Below, one piece after another: positions 1 through 53,228 of a stretch of DNA of 53,228 nucleotides; position 1 is the first letter of the stretch; the number at the start of each line of letters is the position of its first letter. The stretch spans positions 1-53,228 of the IMG/VR virus record IMGVR_UViG_3300048029_000117; one strand, given 5' to 3'. The position numbers and the translations under genes are program-made. This DNA is from a virus. Its lineage: Duplodnaviria; Caudoviricetes. The notes beneath the pieces are model-generated. The model searched no databases and was not told the origin of the DNA. It worked only from the letters and a program-made list of their open reading frames with translations.

Positions 1-1
1 A

Positions 2-436
2 TATAATGATGATGATAGATTTATTAAGTTTAGAAAAGTCGCAGAATGGTTTGAATTAGATAAAACTAAAAATCAAACATGGAAGTTTCATGACCAAAAA
101 CCAAATCAACAGTTAATGTTTCATATCGATAATTTACCAGGTGAACCAAGAAAAGAAAGAATTGAAAGTAAAGAATTTAAATATGCTAGAGACAAAACAA
201 GATTTCTAGTTTTTCTTGAAGATTGGGAACCAGGGCAGATATTTCAATTTGGTAATCATATACATACACAATGGAAAGCAGGAGAAGTTGTCACTTGGGA
301 GTGGTCAACTTTACCACATGCAACATGGAATGGTTCATGGAAAAAAAGACCTGCACTACAAATTACAGGTACTGCAACTGCAAAGACTTGGCAAAAAATA
401 AAAGAAGGAGACAAAAAATGCACCCTGGTTCACTAA
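2..436 (+). CDS. 5'-truncated 2OG-Fe(II) oxygenase-like protein (Asp/Asn beta-hydroxylase-like)
   Basis: The frame is open from position 2. HxD motif (FHID), distal His (LPHATWNG) and a downstream Arg match a DSBH dioxygenase pattern. Confidence 0.6.
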   Translation, partial: YNDDDRFIKFRKVAEWFELDKTKNQTWKFHDQKPNQQLMFHIDNLPGEPRKERIESKEFKYARDKTRFLVFLEDWEPGQIFQFGNHIHTQWKAGEVVTWEWSTLPHATWNGSWKKRPALQITGTATAKTWQKIKEGDKKCTLVH

Positions 437-969
437 AAAATATGGAATGGATGGTTGAAAAACTAGCACCATACTTAGAAAAAGAAAATGACATTCTAGA
501 TGTAGGTGGTGGTGGTAAACTAGAAAGAAGTTACAAAGAAATATGGACAAAATATACTAAAGACTATTATGTTGCAGATATAGTAGATGCACCAAGTGTA
601 ACTCATTTTATGGAACACAGATATTACATACCAGCAGAGAGTGAAACATTTGATGTCGTTGTTTCAGGACAATGTTTAGAGCATGTTGCAAATCCATTTA
701 AGATGTTTGATGAAATGTGTCGTGTTTTAAAAACAAATGGCATCATTATTATCATAGTACCAAGTGCAGGACCTAGACACGATGTAAAAGACCATTGGAG
801 ATTTATGGACGATGCATTTGAAGGTATTGTCGAAGATTCTAAATACGAAATAAAAGTTATTGAAGATTATATTGATACTTTTCATTCAGGTGACCAAAGG
901 TCAGGTAAATGGAGAGACCACATATTTGTTGGACAGAAATTAGAAGACTACATAGAAGTGAAAGTATGA
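418..969 (+). CDS. Class I SAM-dependent methyltransferase
   Basis: ILDVGGG motif I and FDVVVSGQCLEHV. ATG at 418 with an AGGAG SD upstream, so it is shorter than the ORF-track call. Confidence 0.85.
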   Translation: MHPGSLKNMEWMVEKLAPYLEKENDILDVGGGGKLERSYKEIWTKYTKDYYVADIVDAPSVTHFMEHRYYIPAESETFDVVVSGQCLEHVANPFKMFDEMCRVLKTNGIIIIIVPSAGPRHDVKDHWRFMDDAFEGIVEDSKYEIKVIEDYIDTFHSGDQRSGKWRDHIFVGQKLEDYIEVKV

Positions 970-1694
970 TAAAAGGTTATATTATAACAATGGTGAACAA
1001 TCACGAATCTACGTTAGCAAGTAGACAGGTAATAGGTTCTATCAAGCAAACAAAGTCTGAAATAGACCCATTAATCTTTCCTGCGACTACACCAGATACT
1101 GTCCAACAAGATTTAAAAAAGATAACGAGTATAGATGCACAGTGGTTAAAATATAGTTATCCACAAGTCGGTGAGAAGTATGACATAGCAACTGGACTAA
1201 GACTTCGTGCATATGAGACTGGTAATATACAAAATAGAATTGCCTGCATGGTATCACATATGAGACTTTGGCAAGAATGTATTGACTTAGGAGATAAGAT
1301 TATTATACTAGAACACGATGCACTTTTTACTCGACAGTTTATTGAAAACGATATTGATAAAAGTCACAAATGGAGAGGTGAAGTTGTTGGTCTAAATGAC
1401 CCTAGGGGCATGACTCGTAAATCACAGGTGTATCACGACTTAGTATCAAAACAACAAGGCGTACAAGACGTGCCTTATGTTGATGAATCAAAAGACTATC
1501 CCCAGGGTCTTGCAGGTAATTCTGCATACATTATGACACCAAAAACTGCAGAACAGTTATTGATTAAAACAAAAGAGATTGGTATGTGGCCAAATGATGC
1601 GATAATGTGCAAACAATTGTTTCCATCTTTACAAGTTGTTTATCCTTATTACACTACCATACAACAAGGACTAAAGAGTACAACAACTCAATGA
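966..1694 (+). CDS. Glycosyltransferase family 25
   Basis: Motifs IACMVSHMRLW, IILEHDALF, GNSAYIMTP..A..L and PND. ATGA overlap with the upstream gene. Confidence 0.85.
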   Translation: MIKGYIITMVNNHESTLASRQVIGSIKQTKSEIDPLIFPATTPDTVQQDLKKITSIDAQWLKYSYPQVGEKYDIATGLRLRAYETGNIQNRIACMVSHMRLWQECIDLGDKIIILEHDALFTRQFIENDIDKSHKWRGEVVGLNDPRGMTRKSQVYHDLVSKQQGVQDVPYVDESKDYPQGLAGNSAYIMTPKTAEQLLIKTKEIGMWPNDAIMCKQLFPSLQVVYPYYTTIQQGLKSTTTQ

Positions 1695-51100: not shown

Positions 51101-51874
51101 ATGGCAAAAATAAGTAACAGAAATGATTTTAGAGACTACGTACTACGTAGACTTGGATATCCAGTTATAGAAATAAATGTAGACGATGACCAAATCGAAG
51201 ATAGAATTGATGATGGTTTACAGTTATTTCGTGAGTATGCCGCAGATGGTCAGTTAAGAGTTTTTCAACCTGTATTAATTACTCAAGCAATGGTTGATGC
51301 TAAAAGTATTGATTTAAACACCGCTTTGCCAGCAGTTGCAAATAGAATACTAGATGTTGTAAAAGTTTTTATGATAGGTGATTCAACATCAAATGTAAAC
51401 TTCTTTGATATCAAATATCAAATGCGATTAAATGACCTTGCAGATTTGGCAACAGGTGTAGGTGATTTAGCATATTACGAACACATGCAACAATATCTTT
51501 CTATGATTGATTTAAAACTTACTGGTCAACCTCAAATACAATTTAGTAGACACAGTGGTACATTGTTTATCGCTGGTGATTTACGTGATGGTGGCGATAT
51601 AAAGGTTGGCGATTACATCATGCTTGAAATGTTTGTTGAAGAAGCAGAAAGTGTTGGTGGTGTTTACAATAATTTATTCATGAAAAATTATGTAACTGCG
51701 ATATTGAAAAAACAATGGGGAGAAAATATAAGTAAATTCGAAGGTATGACACTCCCTGGTGGTGTGACGTTAAATGGTAGACAATTGATTGATGATGCTA
51801 AAGAAGAAATAGAAAGAGAAATAGAAAAACTAAGAAACGAGTATGACAATCCACCTAATTTCTTTGTAGGGTAG
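51101..51874 (+). CDS. gp13: Neck protein gp13
   Basis: Y.LRRLG.PVIEINVDDDQIEDRIDD and K.QWG.N..KF.G..LPGGVT.NG. Confidence 0.95.
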   Translation: MAKISNRNDFRDYVLRRLGYPVIEINVDDDQIEDRIDDGLQLFREYAADGQLRVFQPVLITQAMVDAKSIDLNTALPAVANRILDVVKVFMIGDSTSNVNFFDIKYQMRLNDLADLATGVGDLAYYEHMQQYLSMIDLKLTGQPQIQFSRHSGTLFIAGDLRDGGDIKVGDYIMLEMFVEEAESVGGVYNNLFMKNYVTAILKKQWGENISKFEGMTLPGGVTLNGRQLIDDAKEEIEREIEKLRNEYDNPPNFFVG

Positions 51875-51877
51875 GTC

Positions 51878-52750
51878 ATGGCAACAAACCAGTATTTTAA
51901 ACAGAAAGTTCGTTCAGAACAACAACTCTTTGAGGATTTAGTTATAGAATCTTTACAGATGTTTGGACAAGATGTCTATTATTTACCTAGAGAAATAGTT
52001 AACAAAGATAAAATCTTTTTAGATGACGTTCCATCTAGATTTTCAGATGCATACAAAGTAGAAATGTATATTGAAAATGCAGAAGGGTTTGAAGGTGAAG
52101 GAGATTTATTTACAAAGTTTGGTGTAGAGTTAAGGGACCAAGCAACATTTATTGTTTCAAGAAAAAGATGGGTGCAATTAGTTGGTAAACGATTAGAGGT
52201 AGCAAACTTTAGACCAAGAGAAGGTGATTTAATATATTTACCAATGTCTGAATCTATGTTTGAAATACGTAGAGTTGAAACTGAAACACCATTTTATCAA
52301 TTAAAAGATTTACCAACATTTAGATTACAATGTGAATTGTTTGAGTACAGTGGTGAAGACTTTGATACTGGCGTAGACACAATACAAGATGTTGAAACAG
52401 AAGGTTCTTTCAAATATAATTTATCACTTGATTCAGGTGGTGGTAGATTTATTCAAGGTGAAACTGTCACACAAGTATTCGATACTTATAATATGATTGG
52501 AGAAGTTGCATTTGCATCTGATTCTGGTAATACTTTACAACTAATTCACAGTGGCGCAACTGATGGATTGTTTCATGAATGGACTACAACTAGAAGTATT
52601 ATTGGTAACCAAAGTCAACACGTGGCAACACCGACTTCAATAAATCAAATAAATGATATATTGAGTGATAATCAGAATAAAACTTTTGACGATTTTGAGT
52701 CAGACTTTCTAGACTTTAGTGAAGGTAATCCATTTGGAGATATGTCGTAA
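51878..52750 (+). CDS. gp14: Neck protein gp14
   Basis: EQ.L.EDL..ES....GQDVYYLPR, KFG..LRD, RP.EGDLIY.P and DFSE.NPFG. Confidence 0.95.
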   Translation: MATNQYFKQKVRSEQQLFEDLVIESLQMFGQDVYYLPREIVNKDKIFLDDVPSRFSDAYKVEMYIENAEGFEGEGDLFTKFGVELRDQATFIVSRKRWVQLVGKRLEVANFRPREGDLIYLPMSESMFEIRRVETETPFYQLKDLPTFRLQCELFEYSGEDFDTGVDTIQDVETEGSFKYNLSLDSGGGRFIQGETVTQVFDTYNMIGEVAFASDSGNTLQLIHSGATDGLFHEWTTTRSIIGNQSQHVATPTSINQINDILSDNQNKTFDDFESDFLDFSEGNPFGDMS

Positions 52751-53228
52751 TGTTTGGTACTCATTTTTATCACAAAAGAGTTCGAAGTGCAGTAAGTGTC
52801 TTTGGGTCGTTATTTAATAATCTTTATGTGCTTAGACAAAACTCTGCAGGTGAAACTATTTCACAAGTTAAAGTGCCACTATCATATGCGCCAAAAAGAA
52901 ACTTTCTTGCTCGAATAGAACAAATGACAAATGGCGAACAAAATGAAAGACTCGTTGCAATTAAATTACCACGTATGTCTTTTGAAATAAATGGTATAGC
53001 GTACGATGAAACAAGACAATTAAATAAGATGAATAACTTAAATAAAGTTCTTGCTGGTTCAACAATATCAAGACAAAAGTTATTTACTGCAACACCATAC
53101 AACATTAATTTTGATTTAAATGTTTATGCTAAGTCTCAAGACGATGCACTACAAATAGTAGAACAAATATTTCCATTCTTTACGCCACAATATACTGTTT
53201 CAGTAAAACCTTTTAGTAATGTTGCATT
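52750..53228 (+). CDS. gp15: Tail sheath stabilizer/terminator gp15 (3'-truncated)
   Basis: Own translation: MFGTHFYHKRVRSAVSVFGSLFNN...KVPLSYAPK...IKLPRMSFE...QIVEQIFPFF.P. Runs off the window end. Confidence 0.93.
   Translation, partial: MFGTHFYHKRVRSAVSVFGSLFNNLYVLRQNSAGETISQVKVPLSYAPKRNFLARIEQMTNGEQNERLVAIKLPRMSFEINGIAYDETRQLNKMNNLNKVLAGSTISRQKLFTATPYNINFDLNVYAKSQDDALQIVEQIFPFFTPQYTVSVKPFSNVA

Follow-up and report, generated by a model that had tools for sequence, protein, structure and literature searches.

Missing words in a T4-like marine phage

We analyzed the whole IMG/VR virus record IMGVR_UViG_3300048029_000117, a stretch of 53,228 bp that is rated 26% complete (GC content, 0.3395) and is hereafter called the window. 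It is about one third of the ~142 kb genome of a lytic T4-like marine myophage. PHROG and Pfam matches indicated that it encodes T4-type gp32, gp6, gp10, a neck protein, and baseplate hub proteins; glycosyltransferases are concentrated in its leftmost 12 kb, and a nuclease-like protein is encoded by the open reading frame (ORF) starting at position 8580, termed ORF 8580 (Table 1). Across the whole window, four short words, GATC, AGCT, the asymmetric AGCC/GGCT, and GCWGC, are almost or completely missing. The rest of the genome is represented by a relative, G002 (99,095 bp), which overlaps the window at both ends with 86-88% nucleotide identity: window positions 50928-53228 align to G002 99095-96792, and positions 416-8536 align to G002 8074-1. 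This overlap led us to infer that the ~142 kb genome is circularly permuted and that G002 supplies what lies beyond the window.

The exact counts on one strand were one for GATC, one for GCTGC, and zero for AGCT, AGCC, GGCT, and GCAGC, which agreed with those obtained by eye in a preliminary description of the window. The words described there as common were also confirmed to be so (GGCC, 23; GANTC, 185; TGCA, 488; TCGA, 84). A first-order Markov model predicted 131 GATC, 162 AGCT, 149 AGCC plus GGCT, and 34.5 GCWGC, and a maximal-order model predicted 160, 43, 62, and 26, respectively. As the strictest null, synonymous codons were shuffled 300 times within each of 49 ORFs, with the proteins and the codon usage of each gene being kept. 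The shuffled sequences contained 114.9 ± 7.5 GATC (lowest, 94; observed, 1), 84.9 ± 7.4 AGCT (lowest, 66; observed, 0), 73.1 ± 7.3 AGCC/GGCT (lowest, 52; observed, 0), and 38.9 ± 2.7 GCWGC (lowest, 30; observed, 1). The four words were 11-15 standard deviations under this null, and none of the 300 shuffles came near the observed values, while control words were at expectation (observed versus shuffle: GGCC, 22 and 19.2; GANTC, 179 and 178; ACGT, 115 and 119). The near-total lack of the four words, for which Markov-normalised counts had been proposed as a check, was far below expectation under all nulls and proved stronger than first noted (1/115, 0/85, 0/73, and 1/39 against the shuffle).

Additional words were depleted to a lesser degree (observed/shuffle mean): GGATG/CATCC (5/33), ACGC/GCGT (18/99.5), CCGG (3/21), CASTG (23/51), and AGCG/CGCT (32/70). 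AGCA was not reduced (458 versus 435 in the codon shuffle), and TGCY and CGCY were still common. TGCA was enriched in the window, with 488 copies versus 261 (first-order Markov) and 398 (codon shuffle), because GCA is heavily used for Ala; it was approximately threefold enriched in a sister group (1032/351).

Codon counts confirmed the earlier claim that codon choice is bent at Met-Ala, Ala-Ala, and Asp-Pro/Gln. Before codons starting with C, Asp was encoded by GAC 74 times and by GAT once, compared with 284 GAC and 803 GAT elsewhere. After codons ending with A, Ala was encoded by GCA (233) or GCG (12) and never by GCC or GCT (n = 245), and GCT was used for none of the 108 Ala residues that follow a G-ending codon. 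Met-Ala pairs used GCA 22 times, GCC and GCG twice each, and GCT never. The first codon of Ala-Ala was GCC in 28 cases, GCG in 15, GCT in one, and GCA in none (n = 44), compared with GCA in 805 of 1101 cases elsewhere. Similarly, ATC was used for 0 of 110 Ile residues following a G-ending codon and for 133 of 1016 elsewhere. This context-dependent codon choice is exactly what avoiding the words requires.

The two surviving sites were compared with related loci (L numbers) that cover them. At the position of the lone GATC, one of the two covering relatives has GATC (L187) and the other GACC (L170). The lone GCTGC is a recent change or an error, since the site reads GCGGC or GCCGC in four of four covering relatives.

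Table 1 Features of the window discussed in the text
Feature	Position	Strand	Basis or remark
Class I S-adenosylmethionine (SAM) methyltransferase, small-molecule families, not a DNA methyltransferase family	271-969	+	Pfam
Two GT25 glycosyltransferases	909-1694, 1607-2350	+	Pfam
GT8-like glycosyltransferase	2295-2990	+	Pfam
Staphylococcal-nuclease-like (SNase) protein, family of non-specific nucleases	2977..3399	+	Pfam PF00565, E 8e-17
ORF 8580, predicted 231-amino-acid PD-(D/E)XK nuclease, PvuII/DpnI-like fold, in a variable slot, no methyltransferase partner	8580..9275	+	Alignment, model
510-amino-acid protein with TET-associated-glycosyltransferase (TAGT) domain at residues 216-418	9584..11116	+	Pfam PF20691, E 2.4e-42; PHROG 842
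GT1/GT4-like glycosyltransferase	11113..12171	+	Library matches
gp32 single-strand DNA-binding protein, T4-like marker	12886..13851	+	Library matches
Baseplate/tail protein with N-acetylmuramoyl-L-alanine amidase domain	22326..24281	+	PHROG 822; Pfam Amidase_2, E 3e-14
Sole GCWGC (GCTGC) of the window	22884..22888		
gp6 baseplate wedge protein, bait for collecting relatives	27569..29416	+	Library matches
Sole GATC of the window	44263..44266		Inside CCATGGATCCATGG

Conservation and variation of the avoided set

Independent contigs with 86-99% nucleotide identity were compared. G002 contained none of the four words (observed/expected: GATC, 0/291; AGCT, 0/289; AGCC plus GGCT, 0/262; GCWGC, 0/51), and neither did G001 (24 kb) or G003 (30 kb). 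In 12 loci with gp6 of at least 85% identity (139,597 bp), GATC and AGCC/GGCT were zero in 12 of 12, AGCT in 11 of 12, and GCWGC in 9 of 12. Among eight loci around the glycosyltransferase, GATC was zero in seven, with a single GATC overall, and the other three words were zero in all eight. Six loci beyond the right end of the window (46,807 bp) had GATC 2/121, AGCT 0/143, AGCC 1/126, and GCWGC 0/32. In the 141,945 bp composite, other words were also rare (expected values in parentheses): CGWCG 1 (28-31), GGATG 19 (106-148), CASTG 49 (164-243), CTGAAG 17 (52-65), GCAAGC 0 (20-28), GCATGC 0 (10-14), and GTGCAC 2 (20). Avoidance is genome-wide and has persisted among diverged relatives.

Which words are avoided varies by lineage, in a modular fashion, and no set is universal. 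A sister group (83-87% identity in the neck protein, ~70% in gp6) lacks GATC (0/297) and CCGG (0/55) and is poor in GGATG (14/106), and it retains AGCT (90/293), AGCC (74/273), and GCWGC (71/51). The surviving AGCT in this group (L013-L021, L172-L190) is mostly within CAGCTG (179/324, both strands counted). L011 has AGCT (3/19) and no AGCC/GGCT (0/16). Among loci that share the 510-amino-acid glycosyltransferase, L098 lacks AGCT (0/47) and GCWGC (0/13) and has AGCC (38/42), L127-L137 lack only AGCT, with AGCC present and GCWGC normal, L106-L124 are low in GCWGC and GGCC, and L141-L143 lack GATC. In a clade whose gp6 is 46% identical, all four words occur at normal frequency (L024: GATC, 71/53; AGCT, 134/120). 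Even inside the closest clade, CASTG varies, with summed counts of 11 versus 178 expected in seven loci and 46 versus 98 in four others. Most of the distant pelagiphage-like gp6 contigs (L026-L081) have almost no CASTG, typically 0-3 versus 6-12 expected per contig, and the SAR11 phages HTVC008M and Mosig are alike in this.

The cultured relatives HTVC008M, Mosig, Melnitz-3, and C48C1 (L258-L289) have missing words of their own (expected values in parentheses). Mosig lacks ACGT, 0 (188-247), and is poor in GATC, 19 (330-381). HTVC008M is poor in TCGA, 2 (121-205), CASTG, 10 (158-260), and GATC, 83 (330-405). The OM43 phage Melnitz lacks GGWCC, 0 (59-112), with GATC at 24 (458-516) and CGCG at 1 (56-65), and C48C1 lacks CCCGG/CCGGG, 0 (41-90).

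Phage-encoded nuclease and putative DNA-modification genes

The preliminary description offered two causes: host restriction or methylation systems, and self-avoidance of a phage-encoded nuclease, which it tied to the 8580 protein. The fold of the 8580 protein was restriction-enzyme-like by model and alignment. ORF 8580 had no match in Pfam, in PHROGs, or, by sequence, in the PDB. A profile search found 34 relatives; among 31 aligned family members, E46, E74, and K76 were invariant and D65 and E78 nearly so, which corresponds to the D...E-x-K centre of PD-(D/E)XK nucleases. The model built from the 31-sequence alignment had a predicted local distance difference test score (pLDDT) of 89; an earlier fold from eight close sequences was unusable (pLDDT 45.7). 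Structural alignment of the predicted model gave Z scores of 9.3 with PvuII (root-mean-square deviation (rmsd) 4.3, 137 aligned residues), 8.3 with DpnI (rmsd 3.4, 137 aligned), 8.3 with Eco15I, and 8.1 with NhoI, and Foldseek matched the same enzymes weakly (E about 2e-3). The homing enzyme I-Ssp6803I, also of the PD-(D/E)XK type, was among the fold matches (Z 5.7). ORF 8580 thus appears to share with PvuII, DpnI, NhoI, and Eco15I a common fold over 104-144 aligned residues and the catalytic D...E-x-K, but it differs from them in its low identity (12-15%), its lack of a Pfam family and of a methyltransferase partner, and its position in a phage slot.

This slot lies between conserved genes (window 8537-9268) and holds the nuclease in the window, L085, and L088. 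In L084 (1952-2582) it is occupied by a 208-amino-acid GIY-YIG-like ORF and in L086 (958-1417) by ~460 bp of other sequence; both lack the ORF 8580 gene and show the same word avoidance. Besides the window, only L085 and L088 carried the gene among 254 loci examined. No copy was present in the 99 kb of G002, which ends exactly at the slot and does not cover the slot itself. Presence or absence between conserved genes of near-identical phages, alternating with a GIY-YIG ORF, is also typical of the free-standing seg/mob homing endonuclease genes of T4; unlike these, the best fold matches of ORF 8580 are classical restriction enzymes. In our reading, the predicted protein is a solitary nuclease, restriction-like or homing, that is encoded by a mobile gene, and it is not the cause of the genome-wide pattern.

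If self-avoidance or phage-phage warfare had shaped the pattern, the words would be the targets of phage-carried, methylase-less restriction-type nucleases such as the ORF 8580 family; these would shred host or co-infecting phage DNA, and the carrier and its neighbours would survive by having lost the sites. The intact D...E-x-K centre and the PvuII/DpnI-like fold are consistent with such a role, and the PvuII recognition site contains AGCT. No methyltransferase was found in the genome, nor among 10 ORFs next to five family members of other contigs. Furthermore, L298/L299, which form a distantly related T4-like lineage (~50% protein identity), encode a family member of 31% identity and have no AGCT, AGCC/GGCT, or GCWGC (GATC, 98); the same trio is missing as in the window, a coincidence that is unexplained. 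Cultured relatives on hosts described as restriction-poor still lack words, which makes phage-borne nucleases a live minority rival.

Several results argue against it. The gene is in just two of the 254 loci besides the window, avoidance is unchanged where the slot is replaced, and a single enzyme cannot account for at least five unrelated words. Contigs with family members avoid various, differing words, and a missing 4-bp palindrome was found in 9 of 14 of them, compared with 5/8, 28/61, and 22/35 contigs without an observed family member. Searches of the window, G002, HTVC008M, Mosig, and Melnitz for DpnII or MutH/Sau3AI-type enzymes gave one sub-threshold match, in Melnitz, and nothing else. 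We therefore regard self-avoidance as unlikely, and the proposal that the 8580 protein is the general cause was not supported, because close relatives without the gene show the same avoidance. A one-to-one relation between the ORF 8580 family and one specific word was also rejected as a general rule, as carriers avoid different words and palindrome loss is no commoner among them. Single-protein scans with P0015, P0016, and P0019 gave no matches.

In a broader form, which we consider quite unlikely, methylase-less restriction-type nucleases circulating among marine T4-like phages would have left the missing words as their footprint, with the ORF 8580 family as one example. Such phages would shred un- or differently methylated host chromosomes and competitors and would owe their immunity to site loss, not to methylation. 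This would explain the thorough purging in phages of restriction-poor bacteria and an asymmetric target without a known host enzyme.

The words could also have been lost by mutational decay or as a side effect of DNA modification, if methylated cytosines deaminate or if the words are targeted by a phage glycosylation pathway. Besides its TAGT-type glycosyltransferase, the phage encodes other sugar enzymes. Passages of one paper describe a preference for GC followed by C or T in TET-linked phage C5-methyltransferases (PMC8256090), and this preference would include AGCC and AGCT. However, the deamination products were not in excess (AGTT/AACT, 860/783; GATT/AATC, 646/622), and bias would not give exact zeros over ~142 kb of coding sequence, which call for selection; decay therefore does not fit. 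In addition, TGCY and CGCY remain common, and GATC does not contain GC. Searches of the window, of G001-G003, and of two large relatives gave no C5, N6/N4, or Dam-type methyltransferase (PF00145, PF01555, PF02086) and no thymidylate-synthase homologue (PF00303), although remote families could escape them; G004 likewise had none of these four Pfam families. C5 cytosine methyltransferases were found in zero of five records (G001-G005; control positive in nine genomes), and the window ORFs at 271-12600 had no such Pfam match; thymidylate-synthase homologues (PF00303) were likewise found in zero of five (control positive in 10). TET/JBP dioxygenases matched in none of the five records, but the search control matched nowhere either; two other 2-oxoglutarate-Fe(II) oxygenases are present in G002. 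Taken together, decay or modification is a highly improbable origin of the pattern.

The clade shares a TAGT-type glycosyltransferase with the methyltransferase-TET-glycosyltransferase hypermodification cluster, but no C5 methyltransferase was found in the clade. Pre-replicative glycosylation of 5-hydroxymethylcytosine (5hmC) or 5-hydroxycytosine (5hoC) requires a thymidylate-synthase homologue that makes the modified nucleotide, according to a further paper (PMC13326640); the window clade differs from the pre-replicative T-even and RB69 type in lacking this homologue in all five records. The phage DNA is probably ordinary, either unmodified or at most partly modified.

The TAGT domain clusters with the GT25, GT25, GT8, and GT1/GT4 genes and the class I methyltransferase (271-12171), and the substrate of this cluster may be DNA or the host envelope. 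Homologues of the TAGT protein are present in Aeromonas, Tenacibaculum, and Vibrio phages. L089 and L151, both close relatives, lack the GT1/GT4-like gene (window 11107-12202), and in L088 it has been replaced. We considered and rejected a link between the TAGT glycosyltransferase and AGCY avoidance, because many phages that differ widely in their avoided sets have this glycosyltransferase gene and because no methyltransferase or thymidylate-synthase partner was found.

Probable restriction-site avoidance under host selection

Restriction-site avoidance probably accounts for the pattern, i.e., the sites were removed under selection by sequence-specific nucleases of the bacterial host. Selection by host nucleases fits best because the words are mostly classical type II sites, the depletion is at the synonymous level, the set varies by lineage, and no protection was found. 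GATC is the site of MboI and DpnII, AGCT of AluI, GCWGC of TseI and ApeKI, and GGATG of FokI; CCGG is also a classical restriction site. We infer that the cutting agents are host restriction enzymes, most likely several independent enzymes of the natural host population, one of which would recognise the asymmetric AGCC/GGCT. The phage would evade cleavage by not carrying the target words: selection would purge mutations creating GATC, AGCT, AGCC/GGCT, and GCWGC, with weaker selection against GGATG, ACGC, CCGG, CASTG, and CGWCG, and the proteins would be preserved by synonymous codons chosen according to the neighbouring codon.

It is conceivable that a single CviJI-like (RGCY) or AGCY-specific enzyme lies behind both AGCT and AGCC/GGCT, with GGCC being protected in some other way. 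Neither word occurs at all in the window clade or in L298/L299, and the reduction of AGCG without that of AGCA gives a graded AGCB pattern. Against this, AGCC/GGCT is separable from AGCT in L011, in L098, and in L127-L137, and GGCC is at expectation with no GGCC methyltransferase found. A single RGCY or AGCY enzyme is thus very doubtful.

The following points weigh against host restriction as the selecting force. A cognate restriction system of the host is so far a prediction. We know of no prototype enzyme for AGCC/GGCT. The nearest cultured phages include those of SAR11 and OM43, whose hosts are described as restriction-poor, and Mosig and HTVC008M, which share the same SAR11 isolation strain, have different missing words, so that the isolation host does not dictate the set. 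If the phage DNA is glycosylated by the TAGT-type enzyme, avoidance might be needless. One study reports a restriction-modification system for only one of more than 100 SAR11 genomes (PMC7029224); according to a 2026 paper, 8 of 24 cultured SAR11 strains have defence systems (PMC13712998). Of the two causes offered in the preliminary description, selection against host nucleases is the better fit; the cognate host systems are predicted ones, and we can name no enzyme for AGCC/GGCT. A full-text search of methylome papers for AGCC/GGCT returned only repeat tracts among the matches listed, and full-text literature searches gave no report of this word set, or of any such purge, in T4-like marine phages.

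The host is probably a bacterium with peptidoglycan, because the tail protein of the window contains an Amidase_2 domain and G002 encodes Peptidase_M15_3. An archaeal host was set aside in view of these peptidoglycan hydrolases; marine Thaumarchaeota methylate AGCT and GATC according to sections of one report (PMC8919816). The idea of a cyanophage was rejected, as no psbA-type gene was present in five records. The TctA transporter gene of G002 gave no match in a single-protein scan for the host, and a profile scan found seven scattered metagenome-assembled genomes (52-58% identity), including Legionellales, Polynucleobacter, and Weeksellaceae, which was uninformative on the host.

Restriction-site avoidance is known in lytic phages: staphylococcal phage K has no GATC, Bacillus phages are GGCC-poor, and T7 is GATC-poor. 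As in these, short and mostly palindromic type II words have been lost here genome-wide by synonymous change, with no protecting methylase. The present case goes beyond them in that 4-10 words are gone at once, three of them exactly zero over ~142 kb, in that one is an asymmetric 4-mer for which we know no prototype, and in that the host is an uncultured one. Closer in habitat are the pelagiphages, for which passages of Seong et al. 2022 describe GANTC depletion in about half of the genomes, in a clade-specific manner; there, SAR11 seemingly without restriction systems is treated as a puzzle, and an explanation by host range or past defence is raised (PMC9516812). Both cases are clade-specific losses of short words in marine phages of streamlined bacteria. 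Here, unlike in the pelagiphages, GANTC is not depleted, the words differ, and the loss is complete; moreover, the GANTC difference is described particularly in podoviruses (PMC9516812), and the window phage is a T4-like myovirus.

We regard the pattern as real and as an extreme instance of an already known phenomenon, here in a phage that is uncultured. Two features are unusual: an asymmetric 4-mer for which no enzyme is known is lost entirely, and such purging is seen in a group of phages whose known hosts are supposedly restriction-poor. The missing words can be read as a record of the nucleases that this phage must survive, and they could be matched to methylation motifs of marine metagenome-assembled genomes to find the host. 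Pelagimyophage and Melnitz relatives show equally strong but different purges. In streamlined ocean bacteria, the cutting of DNA at specific sequences may therefore matter more than one would judge from their gene inventories. Because AGCC/GGCT is lost altogether, a new 4-bp asymmetric cutting activity is predicted, which would be useful as a tool, and the putative solitary PvuII/DpnI-like nuclease is a cheap candidate enzyme.

No near-identical named phage was found by megablast of the window. By gp6, the nearest named phages were C48C1 (38%), Melnitz, HTVC008M, and Mosig. C48C1 matched 84 of the 159 ORFs of the window plus G002 with a mean identity of 53%; the same ORFs gave 69 matches in Melnitz (44%), 65 in HTVC008M (41%), and 50 in Mosig (40.5%). 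G002 encodes the T4 portal, gp23, terminase, family B DNA polymerase, UvsX/UvsW, RegA, and ribonucleotide reductase, along with ribosomal protein S21, CsgF, PhoH, the TctA transporter, alternative oxidase, NifU, radical SAM, and sugar-nucleotide enzymes. The genome resembles the Pelagimyophage/Melnitz-type marine T4-like phages (Kyanoviridae in records) in its size of ~142 kb, its GC content of 0.33, and its S21, CsgF, PhoH, radical SAM, TctA transporter, and many glycosyltransferases; it differs from them in that the nearest named phage, C48C1, has a mean identity of only 53%, and the C48C1 record gives no host. Among pelagimyophage features, one paper lists S21, curli genes, radical SAM genes, transporters, and many glycosyltransferases (PMC7029224). 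No tRNA genes were found in the window. Positions 7958-8542 showed a weak match to pyrimidine-dimer DNA glycosylase of the T4 endonuclease V type (E 0.004, below the Pfam cut-off). G002 (L248-L252) further encodes a TctC-like binding protein, a carbamoyltransferase, a CHASE2 adenylate/guanylate cyclase, a zeta-toxin-like kinase, and a SegE-type GIY-YIG protein.

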